Sequence record: MZ681930.1 | Direction: 5' to 3' (one strand) | DNA from: Enterobacteria phage phiC600P9 | Length of the DNA stretch: 64,000 nt | Program-made: the position numbers and the translations under genes | The notes under the pieces: model-generated | What the model saw: only the letters and a program-made list of their open reading frames with translations | The model's database searches: none | Told to the model about the DNA's origin: nothing | Shown here: in pieces, positions 2,231 to 54,000 of the stretch | How positions within the stretch are numbered: position 1 is the stretch's first letter | Layout: every line of letters begins with the position of its first letter

Positions 2231-3514
2231 ATGGCTAAAATCAACGAACTTCTGCGCGAATCAACCACAACGAATAGCAACTCAATCGGTCGCCCAAATC
2301 TCGTTGCTTTGACTCGCGCTACCACTAAATTAATATATTCTGACATTGTAGCAACGCAAAGAACTAATCAACCTGTTGCTGCTTTTTATGGTATCAAATA
2401 CCTTAACCCAGATAACGAATTTACATTTAAAACTGGTGCTACTTACGCTGGCGAAGCTGGGTACGTAGACCGAGAACAAATCACAGAATTAACAGAAGAG
2501 TCTAAATTAACTCTCAATAAAGGCGATTTATTCAAATATAATAATATCGTTTATAAAGTATTAGAAGATACACCATTTGCTGATATTGAAGAAAGCGATT
2601 TAGAATTAGCTCTTCAGATTGCAATTGTTCTTTTAAAGGTTCGTCTATTTTCTGATGCTGCAGTAACAAGCAAATTTGAAAGCTCTGATAGCGAAATTGC
2701 GGATGCTAGATTCCAGATTAATAAATGGCAAACCGCAGTTAAATCTCGTAAACTTAAAACTGGCATCACAGTTGAATTAGCGCAAGATTTAGAAGCAAAT
2801 GGATTCGATGCTCCTAATTTCTTGGAAGATTTGCTTGCAACTGAAATGGCAGATGAAATCAATAAAGATATTCTGCAATCTTTGATTACAGTATCAAAAC
2901 GCTATAAAGTTACAGGAATTACTGATACTGGATTCATTGATTTGAGTTATGCATCTGCACCTGAAGCTGGTCGTTCATTATACCGAATGGTATGTGAAAT
3001 GGTTTCGCATATCCAAAAAGAATCAACTTATACTGCAACGTTCTGTGTTGCTTCAGCTCGTGCCGCTGCGATTCTTGCTGCATCAGGTTGGTTAAAACAT
3101 AAACCAGAAGATGATAAATATCTTTCACAAAATGCCTACGGGTTCTTAGCTAATGGTTTACCGCTTTATTGCGATACTAACAGCCCATTAGATTATGTAA
3201 TCGTTGGTGTAGTAGAAAATATTGGCGAAAAAGAAATTGTTGGATCAATTTTCTATGCTCCGTATACAGAAGGTCTTGACTTAGATGACCCTGAACATGT
3301 AGGTGCATTTAAAGTTGTAGTTGATCCAGAAAGCTTACAACCATCTATCGGTTTATTGGTTAGATATGCTTTATCTGCAAATCCTTACACCGTAGCAAAA
3401 GATGAAAAAGAAGCAAGAATAATTGATGGTGGAGACATGGATAAAATGGCGGGTCGTTCAGATTTGTCTGTTTTATTAGGTGTTAAATTACCAAAAATTA
3501 TCGTTGATGAATAA
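2231..3514 (+). CDS. 24: Capsid vertex protein gp24
   Basis: 427 aa ORF, gp23 paralogue, position after gene 23. Confidence 0.95.
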   Translation: MAKINELLRESTTTNSNSIGRPNLVALTRATTKLIYSDIVATQRTNQPVAAFYGIKYLNPDNEFTFKTGATYAGEAGYVDREQITELTEESKLTLNKGDLFKYNNIVYKVLEDTPFADIEESDLELALQIAIVLLKVRLFSDAAVTSKFESSDSEIADARFQINKWQTAVKSRKLKTGITVELAQDLEANGFDAPNFLEDLLATEMADEINKDILQSLITVSKRYKVTGITDTGFIDLSYASAPEAGRSLYRMVCEMVSHIQKESTYTATFCVASARAAAILAASGWLKHKPEDDKYLSQNAYGFLANGLPLYCDTNSPLDYVIVGVVENIGEKEIVGSIFYAPYTEGLDLDDPEHVGAFKVVVDPESLQPSIGLLVRYALSANPYTVAKDEKEARIIDGGDMDKMAGRSDLSVLLGVKLPKIIVDE

Positions 3515-3516
3515 AA

Positions 3517-3545
3517 CAAAGGGACCGAAAGGTCCCTTTTTTATT
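3517..3545. terminator. Bidirectional hairpin terminator between gene 24 (+) and rnlB (-)
   Basis: GGGACC-GAAA-GGTCCC stem flanked by A-run upstream and T-run downstream. Confidence 0.7.
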
Positions 3546-4549
3546 TAACTTACCAATTCAATCCAAGCCGGACGAAGTACATCTTGTACCATTTTAACTA
3601 ATTCCTTTTTAATCAAAGAAGGATTATCCGCTTGAGTTAAAGTAATACCTTCACGAGAAGTTTCTTCCAAAATATCTTGAACAGTTAGTCCCATCACCTT
3701 TCCAAAATCCTTTGGACCAATTTCGCCAATTTTAGAAATAACGTTATTTACTCGGTTCAGTGTAACGTAGCAAGCTAAAATTCCCAGCAATTTATTATCA
3801 GCTTCTGACAGCTCAACTTTAGCTTTAATAGGCTTATCAGACTTTTTCTTTTCGCTAAATTTAGAGTTCTTGCATTTAATAGCTACACGATTGCCATTAG
3901 GCATCCAAGAAGGATAACAAGGTTTCAATACATAACCTTCAGCGGTAAATACTTCGCCTTTTGCTTCGGCATTCCAAACGCATTTATTTGCATCAACTAA
4001 TCCAGCATGGTCTACTGTAAAATTATAATCCTGGACGACAGAATCTAAATCGTTTGGCAATTTAATAAGCTCTTCAAATTTACCGCGACCTAAAAGTGGA
4101 GCCATTTTAAATTTAAATGTATTACAGAATGATTCCATCATATAATCATCGACATAAGTCACATCACCACTTTCGGTAGTAACAATAATGTCAAATACAT
4201 AAAAATCTTTATCGCCATAATCGACATTCTTCTGAATGCCAGGTCCAGCGAATTCGCCAAAGACTTGATAAGATACAACCGCTGAGGTTTCCATAATATC
4301 TTGTACTGCTTTAATGGAATCAGCGTAATTCTTTAGAATAATTTCATACCCAAAGAAATCTTCAGCAGGAAGAATAGGACCAGTACGTTTAGCGCAAGTT
4401 ACTTTATCGCGCTCAATAATCAATGAGAAATTTGTGCCGTGAATCTTTTCACGAGCTACCCACTCCCCACCAGTCAATCCCAAGCTATAAAGTTTTTCAA
4501 TAAATTTAGAGTTGTAATGATTTTCAAGACTGCTATACTTTTTAAACAT
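3545..4549 (-). CDS. rnlB: RNA ligase 2 (Rnl2)
   Basis: 334 aa ORF, N-terminus [19 protein letters not shown] and KIHGTN adenylation motif; T4 Rnl2 length. Confidence 0.93.
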
Positions 4550-4558
4550 AATTAATCC

Positions 4559-4837
4559 TCAAAATGTAATTTCTAACCAATCACCATCACGCTGATCACT
4601 ATTGACTTTAAAGCTGAATCCTTCTTTTCTCAGCCAATCACCAATTTCTTCAGTAATCAATTTATCACGAGCAATACAATAATAATTAAAATGTGTTTTA
4701 CCTTGTTCAGCTGCTTTATTAGCAAGTTCCGAAAAATCTTTAATAAAACACTCTAGTTTAAACTGTTTACTTTTAAGTGCTTTTTCGCGTAATTGACTAG
4801 CAAAAGATTCATTTTCATAAAGATCATACTGTTCCAT
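4559..4837 (-). CDS. Hypothetical protein (T4 24.2 position)
   Basis: 92 aa ORF in operon with rnlB; synteny only. Confidence 0.6.
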   Translation of the reverse strand: MEQYDLYENESFASQLREKALKSKQFKLECFIKDFSELANKAAEQGKTHFNYYCIARDKLITEEIGDWLRKEGFSFKVNSDQRDGDWLEITF

Positions 4838-16687: not shown

Positions 16688-17652
16688 TGTATTCTTTAGA
16701 GGAATTTAATAATCAAGCAATAAACGCAGATTTCCAACGTAATAATATGTTTAGCTGCGTTTTTGCAACAACTCCATCAACTAAAAGCTCTTCGTTGATA
16801 AGTTCAATTAGCAACTTTTCTTATAATAACTTGGGCCTAAATTCAAATTGGTTAGGATTAACTCAAGGTGATATTAATCAGGGAATTACCACGCTAATTA
16901 CAGCTGGCACACAAAAACTGATAAGAAAATCAGGGGTTAGTAAATATCTTATTGGTGCCATGAGTCAACGTACAGTTCAAAGTTTATTAGGCTCATTTAC
17001 AGTTGGTACATATTTAATTGACTTCTTTAACATGGCATATAACTCATCTGGATTGATGATATATTCTGTAAAAATGCCAGAGAATAGATTATCCTATGAA
17101 ACTGACTGGAACTATAATTCTCCTAATATTCGTATAACTGGAAGAGAATTAGACCCTTTGGTTATTTCATTTAGAATGGATTCAGAAGCTTGTAACTATC
17201 GTGCAATGCAAGACTGGGTTAACTCTGTTCAAGACCCAGTAACTGGACTGCGTGCTTTGCCGCAAGATGTCGAGGCAGATATTCAGGTTAATCTTCATTC
17301 TCGCAATGGATTGCCTCATACTGCGGTGATGTTCACCGGATGCATTCCAATATCAGTGAGCGCTCCTGAGCTATCATATGATGGAGATAACCAAATAACT
17401 ACATTTGATGTTACTTTTGCGTATAGAGTCATGCAGGCTGGAGCAGTTGATAGACAAGCTGCGCTTGAGTGGCTTGAATCTGCTGCTATAAATGGCATTC
17501 AAAGCGTTCTCGGAAATAGTGGAGGTGTTACTGGACTATCTAATTCGCTTTCACGACTTAGTAGATTAGGAGGAACTGCTGGAAGCATTTCAAACATTAA
17601 TACTATGACAGGAATTGTCAATTCGCAAAGTAAAATATTAGGAGCAATATAA
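16687..17652 (+). CDS. 54: Baseplate tail-tube initiator gp54
   Basis: 321 aa ORF, synteny. Confidence 0.92.
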   Translation: MYSLEEFNNQAINADFQRNNMFSCVFATTPSTKSSSLISSISNFSYNNLGLNSNWLGLTQGDINQGITTLITAGTQKLIRKSGVSKYLIGAMSQRTVQSLLGSFTVGTYLIDFFNMAYNSSGLMIYSVKMPENRLSYETDWNYNSPNIRITGRELDPLVISFRMDSEACNYRAMQDWVNSVQDPVTGLRALPQDVEADIQVNLHSRNGLPHTAVMFTGCIPISVSAPELSYDGDNQITTFDVTFAYRVMQAGAVDRQAALEWLESAAINGIQSVLGNSGGVTGLSNSLSRLSRLGGTAGSISNINTMTGIVNSQSKILGAI

Positions 17653-17656
17653 CAAT

Positions 17657-17686
17657 GGGGACCTTTCGGTCCCCATATTTTTATTT
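17657..17686 (+). terminator. Hairpin terminator after gene 54
   Basis: GGGGACC-tttc-GGTCCCC followed by atatttttattt. Confidence 0.7.
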
Positions 17687-17971
17687 GCGGAATGAAATGA
17701 AAGCAGAAACTGAAGCAACTAAACTGTCTTCAATATAAACTTCAATTTTTACCGGAGCTTCTGACTCAAATTTACCTGTTACTACACCCTGAAAAATACT
17801 TTCAGTCTGTTCTGGCTTTGAAAAATTTTCAGAAGGAAAAATTCCGAACTTTTTATCTGTTCCAAAAATTTTAATAAATTCATCGTAAACCGCTTCGTTA
17901 AAAGCATTATCAGCAGGAATAACGCCTTCAACTACAAGTTCTTGACCTAAAAAGCGTAAAGAAGATTTCAT
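17681..17971 (-). CDS. Hypothetical protein (T4 alt.-3 position)
   Basis: 96 aa ORF with SD GAGGAA and its own early promoter. Confidence 0.65.
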   Translation of the reverse strand: MKSSLRFLGQELVVEGVIPADNAFNEAVYDEFIKIFGTDKKFGIFPSENFSKPEQTESIFQGVVTGKFESEAPVKIEVYIEDSLVASVSAFISFRK

Positions 17972-17977
17972 TTTGTG

Positions 17978-18033
17978 TTCCTCATGTTATGTCAGTAAGA
18001 CTATTATAACACAACATAAGGAACTTGTAAACT
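17978..18033 (-). promoter_or_regulatory. Early promoter (GTTTAC -35, TGnTATAAT extended -10) with 11-bp inverted repeat
   Basis: Minus strand GTTTACAAG-TTCCTTATGTT-gtgTTATAAT...AACATGAGGAA-cacaaaATG; the 3' arm covers the SD. Confidence 0.75.
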
Positions 18034-20089
18034 ACATTTTGAACTTTTTAGACATTCCGTTAATGTTAACCAAAGAAGCTAAGATTTGAGAAACTTCGTT
18101 TTCCTCTTCTTTTGATTCTTCTACAAGGAATTGATTAAATCCAGCCATTGGACGAACTTCACCAGTTTCCATTAAATGGTCTCCATCATATACTGATTCT
18201 TCTAATTGTTCAGAAGGAGGAACGATTGCACCTTCGATTAGATACTTGTTATAAGCAGTTTCTTTCATAAAGTACGTACTTACTTTATTAATCTTCAGTA
18301 AAATTCCACGCGGTAGAATAACTTCAGCTTCTGATGGAAATCCTGTTAAATGACCTGGAACGATAACTTTGATTCGCTCAGCTCCTTTAATTACCATACC
18401 CACTCTAGTTTCAGCATTTTCATTAGCGTATGTAGAATGACTACCCATATGCATCAAATCTTCTGCATCAACGGAACCTTCTCCTTCACCAGAAAATACT
18501 GCGCCGGAATCATCTAAAGCCATATAGTTTTTACCATGCTCGCCGAAGATATTTGGTTTAAGCGATGTAGATACGAAGTTCTTGAAATAGAACATTTTGT
18601 TTTCAATGTTATGACGCAAAGTTTTAAAGGTAACTTCTTGTCCACGGTAAAGTGTAGTTCCTGGAGGAAGAACTGAACCTTTAGCAAATGCAGAATCCAA
18701 CGTCTCGATGTGTTTAATAGCTCGTTCCATATATTCTTCGCGGGTAGAATCAGGTTTACCCAAAAGGAACGAGTTCATTTCAACATATGAATCTGCACAA
18801 TAATCTTCAATTACATCAGATTCAGCTTGAGTTAATCCTTTTGGAGTTACTTCGGTGCTTGCGTATTCATATGCCTGGGCAGCAGATTCATTAATCAATT
18901 TATAAATGCCATTCATTACAAATTGAATAATAGCTGTCTTTTCATCTGGCGTAGCTTTAGAACCTTTAACCAAATCATTGATAATTTTCTTAATAACATC
19001 AAAGCTATTAGAAATATTAATATCAGCAAGATCGCTTAAAATTTTATCAGTTTTATAATCAAAGAATTCTTTATTCTTTAAATATTCTTGAGAACCTTGA
19101 TATGTTATATCGCTCTGCAACTTGATGGATGGATCACGTAAACGTGCATGGGCTAATGCAATATGATTTCGGAAGTTTTCTAGTTCATAATCGCTAGATT
19201 TAAAACGAGAAGCACTTCTCATACCACCGATAGCTCCTTTGCTGAAGTTTGAACCAATCTGAATAACGCCAGAGTTCATTGGTCCTTCTGCTTTATATAC
19301 CGGAACTTTAGATTCAAACTCTTGATATTTCTTGGCAGCGAAGCTATCACCCTGAAGTGAAGCATCAACAGTAGAATATTGAGCTTGTGCTGCTAATCGA
19401 CGACTAATTTTAGTTTTCTGAATAACAGCTTGGTCCGTGCGCTTATCATTTTCTAAAGCAATAGAAGCAGCAACAGCGACAGCTTTAGGAACAGCATTAC
19501 CTGTTTTAACGTCTACATAAACATCACCAACCTTTGATTCAACTTTTGTGAATAACTCAGTTGAAATAGGAGGTACACCTGGAATGTCTTCTAAATTGGC
19601 ATTTTTACGGTAAACCATAATATATGCATACTTTTTATCATAGTCCCAGATTTCCTTTAAAAGAACATATCGACCTGCTCCTTTAGTACGTACTAAACGG
19701 TCAGCAATAACTTGCATTTGACGAGCAGCGCCATTTGTTTTACTCTTTAGTACACGGAATAAGCACGCGTCAATTTTATACTGTTTCATTGTTTGAAGAG
19801 CAGTATCAAAAACAGCATTAATGACGCCAATTGGATTTCCACCCAAGTTTCTAAGCTTAACCAGTGATAATTTCTCATTAACACCTATCATTACGATATG
19901 CATCATTTTATCGCCCGGCTTAACGTTTTTATTCGTATCACCGCCAGAGGTGTATGTACAAAATCTAAATCCAGGAAGCACGCTTTCTTCGCCGGCTTGA
20001 ATAGCAAAAATTTGTGGTATTTTATGCTTAGGATTTAAGTTAACAACCGGCGCCGAAGCGCCGTCAAATAATTCTGTAATAAGTTCCAT
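18032..20089 (-). CDS. Alt-family ADP-ribosyltransferase, second tandem paralogue
   Basis: 685 aa ORF; N-terminus MELITELFD and C-terminal ART motifs (YRGQ, FVSTSL, EAEVILPRG) shared with Alt; central region diverged. Confidence 0.85.
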   Translation of the reverse strand: MELITELFDGASAPVVNLNPKHKIPQIFAIQAGEESVLPGFRFCTYTSGGDTNKNVKPGDKMMHIVMIGVNEKLSLVKLRNLGGNPIGVINAVFDTALQTMKQYKIDACLFRVLKSKTNGAARQMQVIADRLVRTKGAGRYVLLKEIWDYDKKYAYIMVYRKNANLEDIPGVPPISTELFTKVESKVGDVYVDVKTGNAVPKAVAVAASIALENDKRTDQAVIQKTKISRRLAAQAQYSTVDASLQGDSFAAKKYQEFESKVPVYKAEGPMNSGVIQIGSNFSKGAIGGMRSASRFKSSDYELENFRNHIALAHARLRDPSIKLQSDITYQGSQEYLKNKEFFDYKTDKILSDLADINISNSFDVIKKIINDLVKGSKATPDEKTAIIQFVMNGIYKLINESAAQAYEYASTEVTPKGLTQAESDVIEDYCADSYVEMNSFLLGKPDSTREEYMERAIKHIETLDSAFAKGSVLPPGTTLYRGQEVTFKTLRHNIENKMFYFKNFVSTSLKPNIFGEHGKNYMALDDSGAVFSGEGEGSVDAEDLMHMGSHSTYANENAETRVGMVIKGAERIKVIVPGHLTGFPSEAEVILPRGILLKINKVSTYFMKETAYNKYLIEGAIVPPSEQLEESVYDGDHLMETGEVRPMAGFNQFLVEESKEEENEVSQILASLVNINGMSKKFKM

Positions 20090-20092
20090 GAT

Positions 20093-22144
20093 TTATCCTT
20101 GAACGAACTTGTAAGGCATGTTTGCAATATCTATGCAAGACGCAATAATTCCAAGAGATGATTCTACTTTCTGTTTAACATTTGATGAAACAAATGATGC
20201 AAAGTCAACTCTATCTTCTATATCACCTGTCATTGTAACCAATTCACCAGTTTCCATTAAATGGTCTCCGTCATAGATTACCGATTCGGTGAGCTCTTCC
20301 GTGGTCATAACTTCAGCTTGAATAAGCTTGTTGTTAGTTTTAACTGTTCCATCATTGTAAGATGCATCGGTTATTTTATTAACTTTGACCATTAATCCAC
20401 GTGGCAAAATGACTTCCATTTCATTTGAAGGCGCTAAACTTCCACCGGGTAAAACAACATTGACCTTATCAGCCCCAGTAATAACCCATCCAATTCCAAC
20501 TAAATTATCGCTAGAATTTACTAGTCCTTCATCAGTTTTATCAATAGAAACACTTAGACGCTTTTCGTCTGGTAAAACACCTATAGATGAATCAGTCATC
20601 CAAGTACCAAAAATATTTGGATATAATGATGTTGACACAAAGTTTCTAAAATAAAAAACTCGATTTTTTACCAATGCTTCATATATTGAAGGTAACATTC
20701 GCTGTGAACGATATAAAGTAATACCTTTTGGCAATCGATCGCCATTTTTAAAGGCTGAATCTAAATTATCGATGGCTTGTTCTATTTCGGGTGCTGTCAA
20801 AATACTTGTACGCTCATCTGGATTATATAATCCCAAAAGAGCATTATTCATGTCTACATATCCTGAACCCACATATTCACGAATTCCGCGTTTTTGAGCC
20901 GGTGTGTATTTAGATGAATCTTTATTTTCGACTATAGAATGCAATGACCATCCAACGGTAAGAGCATATCCACGTAATTCTCTTCGAATAATCTTTGTTT
21001 TTATTGCATTCCAAGAATTTTGCACTAACTCATTTGCAGCATCTTGATTTAAATGCGAATGCTTGTTAATATTTCTTTCTAACCAAGCACTTTTATATTT
21101 TTCTAAAGTATCATCGACTATAGAAGCAATAGTTTCTAAAGTTTTTATTGAAGTAATAGATTCTTTTCGTAATCTTTCTAAAGCTTTATTTTTTATTTCT
21201 GCATTAACATCAGATTCTTTATCTTCAGGAATTATAGAAGCTTCTCTGAATGCCATCCCAGCTGTAACACTATTAAGAGCATTCTCTAGTGCAAATCCTG
21301 AAGTAGAAATTACCGTTAATTCATTAGAATCAGAAATTAAAGGCGCGTCCGCTGGTTTATTTAATTCTGCCGCTGAAGCCTCAAATTTTTGAAACATCGG
21401 TGTTTCAAATCTAGAAGATTCCAATGACTGACTTTGTGCAATTGCTCTACGGGAAATTTTAACTTTAACGATTACAGCTTGGTCAGAACGTTTATCGTTT
21501 TCTTGCGCAATAGATGCTGCAATTGCCTCATTTTTAGTTACTTGAGCTCCAGTATCTTTATTGATATAAACATCACCGACCTTCGATTCAACTTTAGTAA
21601 AGAGCTCGGTACTAATTTCCGGAACTCCTGGAATGTCTTCTAGTGATACATTTTTGCGATGTATAAGAATATATGCATACTTTTTATCATAATCCCAGAG
21701 TTCCTTAAGAAGGACGTATCTGCCACCTGAACGACTACGGATAAGTCTATCAGCAATAACTTGAATTTGTCGAGCTTGACCAGCGGTTTTAGACTTAAGA
21801 ATACGAAGCATGCAGGCATCAATTTTATACTGGCGCATTGTTTGCATTGCAACAGTAAAAACTGAATTGATATAATTAATTGGGCTTGGACCAAGACCTT
21901 TCAATTTAGCAATTGAACCTTTAGCAGTTAATGTAAAAGGAACAATGTGCATCATTTTATCGCCCATCTTTAAATCACGATTAGTATCACCTCCAGATGT
22001 ATAGGTACATAAACGAAAGCCTGGTTGTTCAATTGCGTCATCAACATGAACTGAAAAAATTTGTGGTATTTTCTTCTTTGGATTTAAGTTTGTAATCGGA
22101 AGAGTAGTATCTTCGTCAAATAATTCTGTAATTAGTTCCATCAT
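20093..22144 (-). CDS. alt: ADP-ribosyltransferase Alt
   Basis: 683 aa ORF; matches T4 Alt along its length as recalled (MELITELFDEDTTLPITNL...; YRSQ, FVSTSL, EMEVILPRG). Confidence 0.9.
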   Translation of the reverse strand: MMELITELFDEDTTLPITNLNPKKKIPQIFSVHVDDAIEQPGFRLCTYTSGGDTNRDLKMGDKMMHIVPFTLTAKGSIAKLKGLGPSPINYINSVFTVAMQTMRQYKIDACMLRILKSKTAGQARQIQVIADRLIRSRSGGRYVLLKELWDYDKKYAYILIHRKNVSLEDIPGVPEISTELFTKVESKVGDVYINKDTGAQVTKNEAIAASIAQENDKRSDQAVIVKVKISRRAIAQSQSLESSRFETPMFQKFEASAAELNKPADAPLISDSNELTVISTSGFALENALNSVTAGMAFREASIIPEDKESDVNAEIKNKALERLRKESITSIKTLETIASIVDDTLEKYKSAWLERNINKHSHLNQDAANELVQNSWNAIKTKIIRRELRGYALTVGWSLHSIVENKDSSKYTPAQKRGIREYVGSGYVDMNNALLGLYNPDERTSILTAPEIEQAIDNLDSAFKNGDRLPKGITLYRSQRMLPSIYEALVKNRVFYFRNFVSTSLYPNIFGTWMTDSSIGVLPDEKRLSVSIDKTDEGLVNSSDNLVGIGWVITGADKVNVVLPGGSLAPSNEMEVILPRGLMVKVNKITDASYNDGTVKTNNKLIQAEVMTTEELTESVIYDGDHLMETGELVTMTGDIEDRVDFASFVSSNVKQKVESSLGIIASCIDIANMPYKFVQG

Positions 22145-22164
22145 ATCCTCTCTAGTGTTTATTC

Positions 22165-22172
22165 TATTTATA
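22165..22172 (-). promoter_or_regulatory. Late promoter TATAAATA upstream of alt
   Basis: Minus-strand TATAAATA about 20 nt upstream of the alt ATG; fits Alt being a late, head-packaged protein. Confidence 0.7.
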
Positions 22173-22178
22173 AAATTA

Positions 22179-22196
22179 AAGGCCCGAAGGCCTTTA
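22179..22196 (-). terminator. Hairpin after alt.1
   Basis: AAAGGCC-cgaa-GGCCTTT stem; on the minus strand it is followed by AATTTT. Confidence 0.6.
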
Positions 22197-22382
22197 ATAA
22201 TCTATAGGTAAGAGAGTACGATATATTTCAAACTTTGGACCTTTTTCATAAGCATCAAATGTTTCTGTAAATTTATTATAAGCGTATGCATCTACAAATT
22301 CGAGAATGACTTGTGATACAGAAGTAGAAACATCTCCACCTTCTTTTTGAGCCACGACAATTGTTTCTAAGTAAGCTTTCAT
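22194..22382 (-). CDS. Hypothetical protein (T4 alt.1 position)
   Basis: 62 aa ORF, overlapping stop/start with gene 30. Confidence 0.6.
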   Translation of the reverse strand: MKAYLETIVVAQKEGGDVSTSVSQVILEFVDAYAYNKFTETFDAYEKGPKFEIYRTLLPIDY

Positions 22383-23842
22383 AGACCAGTTACCTCATGA
22401 AAATCGCCAAATACATCTTCGAACGTATTAGCTTTAGTTTTATCTTCACGTAAACGAATCGCAATCGGAAGAAATAATTTAACGTAATCAGTGCGGCCAT
22501 CAGATTTTAACCAACCATTGCATTCGCACTCTAGAATTTTTCCAATATAATAATTTTGGTTTTCCATAATGCGAGTACGGTCAAGTTCATGCGATTTTAC
22601 ACCGGCTTTATCTTTTAAGCCTGAACCAGCATTTACCTTAATTTTTCCACACTCTGACTCAAGAATAAATCCACCTGCTTTAGTAGGGTCTTTACGGTGA
22701 GGATAAATTCCTACAATTTTTAAATCAACATCAATTACTTCTTTAAATTTATAGAGATTTTTTGAACGAGCATTTTCCCATAATCCATCGATATTTTTGA
22801 GAATAATACCTTCAAGACCTTGGTCAATATACTTTTTATAAATTACCTTAGCTTCATCTAGGTTATTTACTACCTGGTTTTCAATTAAAATTACTTTATC
22901 ATATCCTGATGTCATTTGTTCTAGTTTAGAAAAACGTACATCATATTTTAAACGAAACGCCGGAAGACCGTATATTTCTACCAACGGGACATAATCCCAG
23001 ACCTGAAACTTCATACATTGAGCTTCTTTTTCAGAAATGGTTCCTTTTAAGGATTTATTGGCGATTCCATTAGAAGTAGTACGAGATTCCGCTACTTCGG
23101 CGAATTCTTTAGCTTTACTAATTTCAGGATAAGCATCAAAAAGAAAATCTAGTCCTTCTGGTTCCTTTTTAACTTGCTCATGGTATACCAATTCGCCATC
23201 AATTAACACACCTTCTGGATGAATCTGGCGGGCTTCAGCAGTCATTTTGATTAATTCTTCCTTAAGAAGATCTAATCCTAGATATTCATTACCAGCTCGT
23301 GATAAAAGACGAACATCATCTAATTCATCACCTCGGACTTCAGCAAAACACCGAGCTCCATCTGCTTTTAACTGTGCAAAAGCTGGAAACTTGATATTCT
23401 TACTAATGCCTTTTTCATCATAAGAACTTGCCAGCATTTGAGGTTGTTCAGGAATTAAACCTGGCCAAACTTTGTTTGCAATAGATACTGAAGCACCGCA
23501 TTCAAGGTCTCGCATCATAACTCGACGCAAAACTTCAACATCATCCTTTTTACCATCGGTGATATATCCAGTCAATTCCTCAATTGCAGCATTTCCAGTC
23601 AATTTCCGAGTAGCTAACGTGAATTCAATGAAGTCAAGCATATCGGTAATGGTCAGCATTCCAAAACTCTGGGTAGCAATACCAGGTTTAGGCCATTTCT
23701 TGATATAATACTGCAACCCACGAGAATAAGTCAGACGATATACTCGTTTAAGCAATTCATTATCTTTATTCTTTTCAAGAATTGCTTGCTTCTGCTTAGT
23801 TGAACCAATAGATGCTATTTCATTCAGAATTTTAAGAATCAT
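22379..23842 (-). CDS. 30: ATP-dependent DNA ligase gp30
   Basis: 487 aa ORF; KxDG adenylation motif (LKADGARCF); T4 ligase length. Confidence 0.95.
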   Translation of the reverse strand: MILKILNEIASIGSTKQKQAILEKNKDNELLKRVYRLTYSRGLQYYIKKWPKPGIATQSFGMLTITDMLDFIEFTLATRKLTGNAAIEELTGYITDGKKDDVEVLRRVMMRDLECGASVSIANKVWPGLIPEQPQMLASSYDEKGISKNIKFPAFAQLKADGARCFAEVRGDELDDVRLLSRAGNEYLGLDLLKEELIKMTAEARQIHPEGVLIDGELVYHEQVKKEPEGLDFLFDAYPEISKAKEFAEVAESRTTSNGIANKSLKGTISEKEAQCMKFQVWDYVPLVEIYGLPAFRLKYDVRFSKLEQMTSGYDKVILIENQVVNNLDEAKVIYKKYIDQGLEGIILKNIDGLWENARSKNLYKFKEVIDVDLKIVGIYPHRKDPTKAGGFILESECGKIKVNAGSGLKDKAGVKSHELDRTRIMENQNYYIGKILECECNGWLKSDGRTDYVKLFLPIAIRLREDKTKANTFEDVFGDFHEVTGL

Positions 23843-51019: not shown

Positions 51020-54000
51020 ATGGCTACTTTAAAACAAATACAATTTAAAAGAAGCAAAACCGCAGGTGCACGTCCTGCTGCTTCAGTATTAGCCGAAGGT
51101 GAATTGGCTATAAACTTAAAAGATAGAACAATTTTTACTAAAGATGATTCAGGAAATATCATTGATTTAAGTATTTCCGCTGGCGGTAATATCAGTGGAA
51201 ATATCACTCAAACTGGTGATTATTTACAAAATGGAACATATAATCTTAATGGAAACCAGTTTGTTTATGCTGGTAAATATATTGAATTCCTGCCTAAAAC
51301 CGCGGGTAATGGTGCTTGGGCAAACCAACATAAAAATAAAGCTCCTATCTTTACCGATTTGAGTTCAACTACTTCTACTTCAGAATACCATCCGCTAATT
51401 AAACAACGCTATAAAGATGGAACTTTTTCTGTTGGTACGTTAGTAAATGAAGGAAGTTTTAAAATTCAATATATCAATGAATCTGGTGATTCGAAATATT
51501 GGACTTTTAATCGAAACGGTAGTTTTATTGTAGATAATGGCAATATTGAAGCTCGTGCTGGTAATATTTCGGCTTCAGGTAATATTAACTCGGCAACTGG
51601 ATTTGTTTCTGCTCCACAGATTAATACAAAAACCATAGTTTTTGATACAAAAGCATTCGGACAATACGATTCACAGTCATTAGTTCAATATGTTTATCCT
51701 GGAACCGGTGAAACAAACGGAATCAATTACCTTCGTAAAGTTCGAGCTAAATCAGGCGGAACCATTTACCATGAAATCGCTTCTGCGCAGACCGGAAAAA
51801 GTGATGAAATTTCTTGGTGGACTGGAAATACAGCCGTTAATAAACAAATGGGTCTTCGTAATGATGGGGCTTTAGTATTACGACGCTCACTCGCAATTGG
51901 TACAATTACAACAGATGAAAACATTAATAACTACGGCTCCGCTGGAGCAATGGGCGAATGTTATATAGTTATCGGTGATGCATCAACAGGTTTATCATAC
52001 AAAAAAACTGGAGTATATGATTTAGTTGCTAGCGGTCTTTCTTTAGCATCTATTACTCCTGATAGTTTCCGTAGTACTCGTAAAGGTATATTTGGCCGCT
52101 CAGAAGATCAAGGCGCAACTTGGATAATGCCTGGTACAAATGCTGCTCTCTTGTCTGTTCAAACACAAGCTGATAATAACAATGCTGGAGACGGACAAAC
52201 TCATATTGGATACAATGCTGGCGGTAAAATGAGTCATTATTTCCGCGGTAAAGGCAAAACTAATATTAATACTCAGGAAGGTGTAGACGTTAACCCTGGT
52301 ATATTGAAGTTAACCACCGGCGGTGAAAGTATTAGCTTTAATGCCGCAACTGGAAGTATTAATTCTACATTAGCTTTTCGTCTTAATAAAGGCATAATTA
52401 TTGATGGACCTGATAATCAGGGATTCCAGTTTAACGCCCCGACGGCTGCAGATGGTACTAGAAGTATATACTGGAATAGTGGTACTCTCGCAGGTCAAAA
52501 CAAAAACCCTGTTACAGTTAAAGTGTGGGGTAATTCATTTAACGCATCTGGTGATCGTAATCGTGAAACCGTTTTTGAAGTAGCTGATGGGCAAGGTTAT
52601 TATTTTTACGCTCAACGTACTAATCCTGCATCAGGTCAAACAGTAGGTCCGGTTAACTTTAAATTTAACGGAACTGTCGAAACAGGCCATATCGTAGGCC
52701 TTGGTAATATAAGTGCCTCCGGTACAGGTTCTTTTGGTGGTAATGTTACCATGTCTAATGGTTTGTTTGTCCAAGGTGGTTCTTCTATTACAGGCCAAGT
52801 AAAAATTGGTGGAACAGCTGATGCATTAAGAATTTGGAACGCTGAATACGGTGCAATTTTCCGTCGTTCTGAAGATAAGCTTTATATTATTCCAACTCCG
52901 CAGAATGCTGGTGAAACAGGTGGCATTTCTAATTTACGTCCGTTCTATATTACATTAAGTAATGGTAAAGTTTCTATGGATCATGACGTAGATATCGGCG
53001 GCGGTAGATTTAAAGTAGAAACTAGTGGAACAACATCAGGGCAACGTATTACAGTTAATACTGCCTCCGATGCTATTAGAATAAATGCTCCAACACAAGA
53101 ATCTTCTAACTTCATCCAAGGACGTAAAGCAGATGTTCCGAAATGGTATTTAGGTATTGGTGATGGCGGCAACGTCGTTCGTATGCACAGTTACACCTAC
53201 TCCCATGGTATTGCATTAAACTCTGATACGGTTGATATAGCTAAACCTCTTAGAATAGGTTCAGCCCAATTAGGTACTGATGGTAATATTACTGGTGGTT
53301 CTGGTAATTTTGCTAACTTGAATACCACAATAAATAACCTTAAGACGGATATTGTCTCGAGTTACCCAATTGGTGCTCCGATTCCTTGGCCTACTGATAC
53401 ACCTCCTGAAGGTTATGCCATAATGGAAGGTCAAACATTTGATGCTGGCTTGTATCCTAAGTTAGCTGCAGTGTATCCTTCCGGCACTCTGCCTGATATG
53501 CGTGGTCAAACTATCAAGGGTAAACCATCTGGGCGTGCTGTATTAAGTACAGAAGCAGACGGTGTTAAGTCACATAGCCATAGTGCAAGTGCATCAAACA
53601 CAGATTTGGGTACTAAGACCACTTCTAGTTTTGATTACGGTAGCAAAACGACTTCAAGCTTTGATTATGGTACTAAGACAAGTAGTACCACTGGCAACCA
53701 TAACCATACAGTGAGTGGTAATACTAGTTCCGCTGGTGCTCACCAACACGCGCGTTCAGGCCCTCAGATGCAAGGCGGCATACCCACTAGCATATTCTAT
53801 GATGGATACAATAGTGCGGGTCCAAACGGCAACGCTAAAATCACTGGAACCGTGAGCGGTGCTACTGCATCGTCGAATATGGCCAAAACTTCTTCAGACG
53901 GTGCCCACACCCATAGTTGGTCAGGAACTACTAGCGCTACTGGTAACCATGCTCATACTGTGGGTATTGGTGCTCATACACACACTGTAGGCATTGGTGC

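Follow-up and report, generated by a model that had tools for sequence, protein, structure and literature searches.

We analyzed a 64-kb stretch of DNA from Enterobacteria phage phiC600P9, a segment of a Tequatrovirus (T4-like) genome; this whole stretch is the window, and all coordinates are its own unless another sequence is named. The subject of this work is a tandem pair of genes on its minus strand: alt, whose product (Alt1) is the ortholog of T4 Alt, and, directly downstream, a gene that encodes a full-length paralog, Alt2. Positions 17600-22400 are 100% identical to phiC600P9 record MT630408.1, and the order of genes on the minus strand is ligase, alt.1, alt, Alt2, and alt.-3, followed by the convergent gene 54. 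A first-pass annotation had described two adjacent open reading frames (ORFs) of 683 and 685 amino acids (aa). We found both on the minus strand, at 20093-22144 (683 aa from the first ATG) and 18032-20089 (685 aa, intact). The 683-aa ORF is present as described, but the likelier start of alt is its second ATG (22139-22141), which gives a T4-type allele of 682 aa at 20093-22141. We favor this start because the Shine-Dalgarno sequence GAGG (22147-22150) has a spacing of 5 nt to the second ATG but only 2 nt to the first, and because both the T4 annotation and the residue numbering used in mass spectrometry (cleavage at ITE-6) begin with MELITE.

A lone late promoter upstream of the first gene had been proposed, and we found exactly one candidate. 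The T4-type late-promoter motif TATAAATA matches exactly at 22165-22172 on the minus strand, and no other exact match exists on this strand from 11.4 to 28.0 kb; no further late-promoter match lies near Alt2. The motif directly follows a G+C-rich hairpin (AAAGGCC-TTCG-GGCCTTT, then AATTTT; 22178-22195, minus strand), which we read from the sequence and which was not among the outputs of a simple terminator scan. The hairpin, which overlaps the alt.1 stop codon, resembles a terminator that would end the upstream ligase/alt.1 transcript. We found that the hairpin is identical in T4, T2, T6, PP01, SH-2, and JE01, as is the entire block of hairpin, promoter, Shine-Dalgarno sequence, and ATG before alt. 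The promoter call is therefore credible because of its position and its identical conservation in six phages and not because of the motif alone. Given what is established about T4 late promoters, TATAAATA at 22165-22172 probably functions as one. We considered a separate promoter for Alt2 and rejected it. Matches to TATAAATA with one mismatch on the coding strand within alt (20907 and 21559) are distant from the Alt2 start, and such matches occur in the window at chance frequency. A scan for a sigma-70 promoter was at background level.

The two genes are separated by exactly 3 nt, as the first-pass annotation had stated. This spacer, ATC (20090-20092), lies between the alt stop codon TAA (20093-20095) and the Alt2 ATG (20087-20089). 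The Shine-Dalgarno sequence of Alt2, AAGGA (20096-20100, minus strand), sits within the last alt codons, 6 nt before the Alt2 ATG. We found that the junction AAGGATAAATCATG is identical in seven phages (T2, T6, PP01, SH-2, JE01, T4, and the window).

Both products belong to the Alt family, as had been claimed. The alt product is 98% identical to T4 Alt, and alignment of the two ORFs with each other by BLASTP gave 42% identity over the full length (E 3e-161), far beyond chance. Both match PF03496 (ADPrib_exo_Tox; Pfam cut-off, 23.4 bits), with 117.2 bits and an E value of 7e-34 for Alt1 and 70.8 bits and 1.3e-19 for Alt2 (residues 416-618). Both also match PHROG 802, "Alt-like RNA polymerase ADP-ribosyltransferase," end to end, at E values of 1e-263 for Alt1 and 3.7e-255 for Alt2 (residues 1-685). 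A further family, PF26846 (Tevenvirinae_ADPRT), has been precomputed on a 98%-identical relative and on the hybrid alt genes described below.

We next compared the two proteins motif by motif. The common N terminus and C-terminal motifs noted by the first-pass annotation are there: MELITE forms residues 1-6 of both proteins, and the C-terminal motifs are YRSQ (477) in Alt1 and YRGQ (481) in Alt2, FVSTSL (501 and 505), and EMEVILPRG (574) and EAEVILPRG (587). In Alt1 the catalytic residues are thus R478, S503-T-S505, and E574-x-E576. In Alt2 regions I, II, and III of the ADP-ribosyltransferase (ART) domain read Y-R482-G-Q, F-V-S507-T-S509-L, and E587-A-E589-VILPRG, encoded on the minus strand by 18644-18646 (R482), 18563-18571 (S507-T-S509), and 18323-18331 (E587-A-E589). 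Loss of catalytic residues from the second copy had been named as the result that would speak against an enzymatic role. We found no such loss: none of R482, S507, S509, E587, and E589 varies across an alignment of 17 sequences that includes both paralog groups. In T4 Alt, the substitution E577A, in the numbering of that paper, abolishes ADP-ribosylation (PMC11404850). E577 would be the second Glu of the ExE motif if counted from the upstream in-frame ATG, and its equivalent in Alt2 would be E589. An ExE rather than a QxE motif goes with arginine specificity in the ART family. Alt2 is predicted to have arginine-specific ADP-ribosyltransferase activity.

The two proteins differ strongly in the center. 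The first-pass annotation was right about this divergence but put its size at about 250 residues; we found that it spans about 180 residues (approximately 240-420), with 2 to 17% identity in 40-residue windows. A second divergent insert lies inside the ART domain, between the STS and ExE motifs. Along the whole alignment, identity is 55 to 82% in the N module, 2 to 17% in the middle, 30 to 45% in the ART core, 5 to 17% in the STS-to-ExE insert, and 40 to 45% around SV(I)YDGDHLMETGE.

From these comparisons we divided Alt2 into five parts, all on the minus strand. The N-terminal propeptide MELITE (20072-20089) has a predicted cleavage site for the prohead protease gp21 (gene product 21) after E6. 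An N-terminal alpha/beta module follows (residues 7-238; 19376-20071), which is basic (isoelectric point [pI] 9.7) and is presumed to be the prohead-core or packaging module. The central module (residues 239-420; 18830-19375) is all helical. The ART domain (residues 421-631; 18197-18829) carries the catalytic residues and the ADP-ribosylating turn-turn (ARTT) loop GFPSEAE. The predicted C-terminal propeptide (residues 632-685; 18035-18196) starts with SVYDGDHLMETGE after LEE-631 and is acidic (pI 4.6).

An AlphaFold2 model of Alt2 (predicted local distance difference test score [pLDDT] of 77; predicted template modeling score of 0.68) agrees with this division. It has an alpha/beta N domain, a long all-helical middle with helices at residues 250-414, and a C-terminal ART domain with the predicted ART fold, a split beta-sandwich with an N-terminal helical lobe. 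The termini are predicted to be disordered, with a pLDDT below 50 for residues 1-10, 629-670, and 677-685. A phmmer search against PDB sequences found no solved structure of any Alt protein. We found no Pfam match to the central module of Alt2 even at E <= 10. Its lone match among 1.8 billion cluster representatives was a 1,147-aa repeat protein, hit through a short DYxLxNF motif, and we judged it spurious; in that search, the 50% cluster of Alt2 itself was evidently represented by a protein with another middle module.

T4 Alt is present in about 40 copies in the prohead core, is trimmed by gp21, is injected with the DNA, and is nonessential. It ADP-ribosylates the alpha subunit of RNA polymerase and other proteins. 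Mass spectrometry showed that gp21 cleaves T4 Alt at ITE-6 and LTE-619, which gives a mature protein of 68.2 kDa (PMC5694885, Ali et al. 2017). Consistently with this, Alt1 has both sites, ITE-6 and LTE-619, and we computed a mass of 68.2 kDa for its residues 7-619, equal to the published value. Alt2 also keeps both gp21 motifs, ITE-6 and LEE-631, the latter aligned to LTE-619 of T4 Alt and placed before SVYDGD, and E6 and E631 are invariant in the 17-sequence alignment. Mature Alt2 (predicted, residues 7-631) would have a mass of 69.2 kDa and a pI of 8.1, compared with 68.2 to 70.0 kDa for Alt1. Alt2 would co-migrate with Alt1 on gels, which is perhaps why it went unnoticed in T2 and T6 particles. 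We found no virion proteome in the literature that covers Alt2; those of Morganella phage MP1 and the Yersinia fPS phages do not. Packaging of Alt2 in virions is supported indirectly by the propeptide, the L-x-E site, the disordered termini, the lack of a promoter of its own, and the hybrid genes.

We then asked how Alt2 has evolved by calculating pairwise ratios of nonsynonymous to synonymous substitution (dN/dS) among six phages (the window, T2, T6, PP01, SH-2, and JE01). The gene has 685 codons and no indels in all six genomes. We found that dN/dS is 0.04 to 0.06 for Alt2 and 0.03 to 0.056 for alt, which are indistinguishable. Within Alt2, the N module is the most constrained part (0.017), followed by the C-terminal tail (0.034), the ART domain (0.050), and the middle (0.084). 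We concluded that Alt2 is under strong purifying selection and is not a decaying duplicate.

The first gene of the pair exists in two allele classes in Tequatrovirus, a T4-type of 682 aa, as in the window, and a T2/T6-type of 697 aa (L003-L006 and L008 5042-7135). The two classes are 100% identical over about the first 200 residues, 10 to 35% identical in the middle, and 60 to 97% identical toward the C terminus. Thus, the "same" gene carries different effector middles in T4 and in T2/T6. The ARTT loops differ as well: GFPSEAE in Alt2, APSNEME in T4-type Alt1, and GIATEAE in T2-type Alt1. Other relatives in the databases mix the parts further: in P0013-15 an Alt2-like ART domain comes with a middle of another kind, and in P0004-6 the middle and ART domain of Alt2 follow an Alt1-type N module.

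The last of these classes is real: we found phages in which a single gene of this kind replaces the pair. In Yersinia phage PST, in Escherichia phages ECML-134 and SCS4, and in two metagenome contigs, one hybrid alt gene of 684 to 686 aa lies between alt.1 and alt.-3. It joins the N part of Alt1 in frame with the middle, ART domain, and tail of Alt2 (PST [L016], 2552-4612; ECML-134 [L017], 2552-4612; L014 and L015, 5001-7061). At the four loci that we mapped (PST, ECML-134, and the two contigs), the Alt1-to-Alt2 breakpoints all differ, falling near codons 100, 150, 180, and 220, and one of them coincides with a 30-nt exact repeat. We rejected assembly artifacts as a general explanation, since three isolate genomes and two contigs are in the single-gene state and the four mapped breakpoints differ. 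The differing breakpoints indicate recurrent unequal crossing-over between the tandem paralogs, a process that we read from the sequences. The hybrids of PST, ECML-134, and the two contigs also suggest that the N-terminal modules are interchangeable. At least four states of the alt locus can therefore be distinguished: T2-type Alt1 with Alt2, T4-type Alt1 with Alt2 (the window), T4-type Alt1 with an Alt2 remnant (T4), and the hybrid alone.

In Aeromonas phage Asfd_1 (L010 1890-6812), full-length, N-only, and ART-only Alt fragments are mixed at the same locus, between ligase and gene 54. In the record of Shigella phage sb4 (PQ666542; L007 2981-7090), both alt genes are divided into several ORFs, but so is gene 48, and we set these fragments aside as most likely due to uncorrected frameshifts in sequencing and not true pseudogenes.

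The tandem pair is already known as a feature and is annotated in hundreds of GenBank and RefSeq records; duplications of alt in T4-like genomes were noted by Nolan et al. 2006 (PMC1524935). In many genomes both genes carry the RefSeq name "Alt-like RNA polymerase ADP-ribosyltransferase," and elsewhere they are called "hypothetical protein" or "alt_1/alt_2." We found the Alt2 segment that T4 lacks at a coverage of at least 80% in 401 phage records, including T2 (LC348380), T6 (NC_054907), RB32, RB9, RB18, PP01, and PST. The 90%-identity protein cluster of Alt2 has 772 member sequences. One record with 97% identity to the region, PV654520.1, is labeled Pseudomonas phage vB_PSGBLB0006 (host given as P. 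aeruginosa), and its host label or sample may be questionable.

In T4 the place of Alt2 is taken by two small genes, alt.-1 and alt.-2 (NC_000866; L001 3066-3451), annotated as "an old duplication of the first part of gene alt." We found that their products are 95 to 96% identical to residues 1-56 and 62-116 of Alt2 and 56 to 62% identical to T4 Alt, and the PHROGs built on alt.-1 and alt.-2 match Alt2 far better than Alt1. Alignment of the T4 region with the window by blastn revealed two lesions in T4. The first is a 1-nt deletion in an A-run near codon 55. The second is a deletion of 1,699 bp, which corresponds to 18043-19741 (minus strand) in the window and is bounded by the 9-bp direct repeats CTAAAGAGT (19742-19750) and CTAAAAAGT (18043-18051). 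Because of the 95 to 96% versus 56 to 62% identity and the two defined deletions, alt.-1 and alt.-2 are the wreck of a full-length Alt2, produced by a frameshift and a 9-bp microhomology-mediated deletion. We rejected a partial duplication of alt as their origin, as both are closer to Alt2 than to T4 Alt. The T4-type deletion junction is present in 91 records, including the natural isolates ACG-C40, fPS-90, vB_EcoM_112, and slur14, and all those that we checked have a T4-type alt.

The pair is older than Tequatrovirus. In Dhakavirus WG01 the same locus holds three Alt genes in tandem (L009 1012-7124). The second (WG01_b) is an Alt1 ortholog with 66% identity to the T2-type allele, and the third (WG01_c) is an Alt2 ortholog with 49% identity over the full length and the same ...KFKM end. 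Since each of the two genes has an ortholog in the corresponding position in WG01, the duplication is older than the split between Tequatrovirus and Dhakavirus. Judged by these sequences, Alt2 is an ancient full-length paralog of Alt1 and not a recent duplicate. A promoter-like motif at the WG01 locus reads CATAAATA.

Of the known systems, T4 Alt is the closest to Alt2. The two share the family (PHROG 802 and PF03496, with PF26846 on close relatives), the locus between DNA ligase/alt.1 and alt.-3/gene 54 in the same late transcription unit, and a four-part layout of propeptide, basic N module, helical middle, and ART domain with an acidic C-terminal tail. They also share the MELITE start, the L-x-E site before SV(I)YDGDHLMETGE, and the R-S-ExE triad. 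They differ in that identity is 42% overall and the central ~180 residues are unrelated (2 to 17%), the STS-to-ExE insert is another one, and turn 1 of the ARTT loop has F584 at position E-3 in Alt2 but P in T4 Alt. The C-terminal end is ...KFKM in Alt2 and ...KFVQG in T4 Alt. T4 alt.-1/alt.-2 is the same gene as Alt2 and shares its upstream junction, AAGGATAAATCATG, and the alt.-3 promoter downstream, but it is broken by two deletions in T4 and intact in the window.

T4 ModA and ModB are likewise members of the R-S-E clade, whose arginine-specific phage ARTs act on host transcription and translation proteins. They are small, about 200 aa, and are expressed early and not packaged, without an N-terminal module, propeptides, or a late promoter, whereas Alt2 has the architecture of Alt. 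The internal proteins of T4 (IPI, IPII, IPIII) resemble the Alt proteins in having a short conserved N-terminal targeting and cleavage peptide that ends in (L/I)-x-E, joined to a variable, injected, nonessential cargo that is hypervariable among T-even relatives; IPI is an anti-restriction effector. In contrast to the Alt proteins, which are enzymes of about 70 kDa present in about 40 copies, the internal proteins are nonenzymatic, measure 8 to 20 kDa, and are present in about 360 copies. Beyond the short peptide, the Alt proteins carry a large conserved domain at the N terminus and a propeptide at the C terminus. For the bacterial ADP-ribosylating toxins of the C3, Vis, VIP2, and iota family, sequence identity is only 13 to 25%; they are secreted or translocated by bacterial systems and not packed in capsids, and they have no counterpart of the Alt N-terminal and central modules.

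Taken together, we think it fairly probable that the locus is a two-gene late operon that encodes two virion-delivered, arginine-specific mono-ADP-ribosyltransferases of the Alt family and that it behaves as a modular effector cassette. In such a cassette, conserved ends for delivery would enclose central and ART modules that can be exchanged, and the number of copies would vary. The first-pass annotation had read the pair in a similar way, and its interpretation is supported wherever sequence analysis can test it. According to this model, one mRNA would be made from the single late promoter, whose motif and conservation we observed. Alt2 would be translated from its own AAGGA site inside the end of alt, an arrangement that we observed and that may couple its translation to that of alt. 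By analogy with T4 Alt, the basic N module and the MELITE propeptide would bring both proteins into the prohead core. There, gp21 would remove residues 1-6 and the acidic tail after LEE-631, at motifs that are present in Alt2, to give a basic protein of about 69 kDa. Alt2 would then be injected with the DNA, and its R-S-ExE ART domain, for which we observed the residues and the predicted fold, would move ADP-ribose from NAD+ to arginines of host proteins. In the last step of the model, the substrate set of Alt2 probably differs from that of Alt1 or only overlaps it, given a central module unrelated to that of Alt1 and differences in the ARTT loop and the STS-to-ExE insert. Different targets for Alt1 and Alt2 are plausible on these grounds and on the long side-by-side retention of the two genes, and this is the weakest step of the model.

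Several points weigh against a two-enzyme, virion-delivered operon. Alt2 is dispensable in some lineages, as T4 and about 90 other records, natural isolates among them, carry the deletion allele; therefore, what Alt2 contributes must either depend on conditions or be redundant with Alt1. (L/I)-x-E is a short motif, also found at several other places within both proteins. In the AT-rich window, TATAAATA shows no enrichment (13 observed versus 8.9 +/- 2.7 expected). T4 Alt is nonessential, and the viability of phages that have only a hybrid gene is no proof that the hybrid protein functions. Divergence of targets is argued from divergence of sequence only, and T4-type and T2-type Alt1, with very different middles, are both credited with the same "alteration" of RNA polymerase. 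A literature search found no proteomic or biochemical study of Alt2 as a protein that is made, packaged, cleaved, injected, or active; of the papers on a possible second Alt, only the genome comparison of 2006 was pertinent.

A broader reading is possible, although we hold it tentatively and consider it rather doubtful. According to this reading, the alt locus is a polymorphic cassette for injected effectors, in which the conserved N packaging module and the C-terminal propeptide serve as delivery signals and recombination handles, and the central-plus-ART cargo is swapped, duplicated, fused, or deleted. Alt2 would then modify a host factor or defense component that Alt1 leaves untouched. The states that we observed are T4-type Alt1, T2-type Alt1, Alt2, the three copies in Dhakavirus, the Alt1N::Alt2 hybrids, and the T4 deletion.

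The strongest alternative is that Alt2 is packaged and active but redundant with Alt1, modifying Arg265 of RNA polymerase alpha and the same side targets and adding dose or backup. The two proteins have the family, the ExE motif, and the delivery ends in common, and T4 Alt has been described as a promiscuous enzyme with many host proteins among its targets. Alt2 was lost from T4 and about 90 relatives, and the effector part of Alt1 from PST and ECML-134, so it looks as if either suffices. Plain redundancy is nonetheless unlikely. It does not lead one to expect that two genes older than the Tequatrovirus/Dhakavirus split would each keep central and ART features of their own under strong purifying selection, nor does it fit central modules that are 2 to 17% identical and ARTT loops that differ.

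We consider it quite improbable that Alt2 is active but not packaged and acts late in the producing cell, for example, in morphogenesis, with the shared N terminus as a relic of duplication. A protein made from a late promoter would be present late, and our literature search gave no proteomic placement of Alt2 in virions. Absence from old gel inventories is uninformative, as Alt2 (69.2 kDa) would co-migrate with Alt1 (68.2 to 70.0 kDa). A relic should not be the most constrained part of Alt2 (dN/dS, 0.017), both gp21 motifs are retained with invariant P1 glutamates, and hybrids that carry the N-terminal part of Alt1 persist in nature. That Alt2 is decaying or noncatalytic, a pseudoenzyme or a structural filler of the head core, is very hard to credit: T4 is viable with the gene destroyed and the Pfam score of Alt2 is below that of Alt1 (71 versus 117 bits), but the 685-codon ORF is intact without indels in 6/6 genomes, dN/dS in the ART domain is 0.05, all catalytic residues are invariant, an ART fold is confidently predicted, and about 400 records retain Alt2.

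The textbook case of an enzyme that arrives with the virion and reprograms the host as the DNA enters is Alt, which is known almost entirely from T4. At the alt locus T4 is a deletion variant; a second, strongly conserved Alt-type enzyme with another middle module is encoded by T2, T6, and about 80% of the relatives that have been sequenced. Therefore, the set of effectors injected by T-even phages is probably underdescribed. If the cassette reading is true, one injected effector used by about 80% of the relatives of T4 was overlooked through fifty years of study of this natural Alt2-deletion strain, and some differences between T4 and T2/T6 in host takeover or sensitivity to defenses might trace to Alt2. 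As a discovery, the tandem Alt pair is modest. What our analysis adds is the origin of alt.-1/alt.-2 by defined deletions, purifying selection on Alt2 as strong as that on alt, the retention in Alt2 of both mapped gp21 sites, and four allelic states that include natural Alt1N::Alt2 fusions. It also corrects the T4 annotation of alt.-1/alt.-2, which are the remnant of a full-length paralog and not a partial duplication.

The neighboring genes complete the locus. At its upstream end lies the DNA ligase gene (22379-23842, minus strand), followed by alt.1 (22194-22382, minus strand), which encodes 62 aa and matches PF24647 "Phage_blade" (E 2e-29). The alt.1 ortholog is called "siderophore-interacting protein" in one RefSeq record (T6), a name that seems to have been transferred in error. 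Directly downstream of the Alt2 stop codon we found a sigma-70 or T4-early-type promoter for alt.-3 (GTTTAC, 17 nt, TGnTATAAT; 18003-18031, minus strand), which scored 11/12 with TG in the scan. The gene alt.-3 (17681-17971, minus strand) encodes a 96-aa DUF5498 protein (PF17602, 5e-64), and the same gene is in the T4 annotation. C-terminal extension mutations in T4 Alt.-3 allow escape from the CmdTAC defense by blocking degradation of CmdA (bioRxiv 10.1101/2024.02.24.581662). Neither the terminator scan nor inspection of the sequence revealed a terminator between Alt2 and alt.-3 (17972-18031), and late transcripts therefore probably read through alt.-3. The scan found a bidirectional terminator hairpin with a 9-bp stem and 6 G-C pairs at 17655-17676 (both strands), between the convergent alt.-3 and gene 54, and this is likely the 3' end of the alt-Alt2(-alt.-3) late transcript. 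We found no tRNA genes anywhere in the window. Its G+C content is 0.42 to 0.43 at 1-2000 and 52001-54000, compared with about 0.35 elsewhere.

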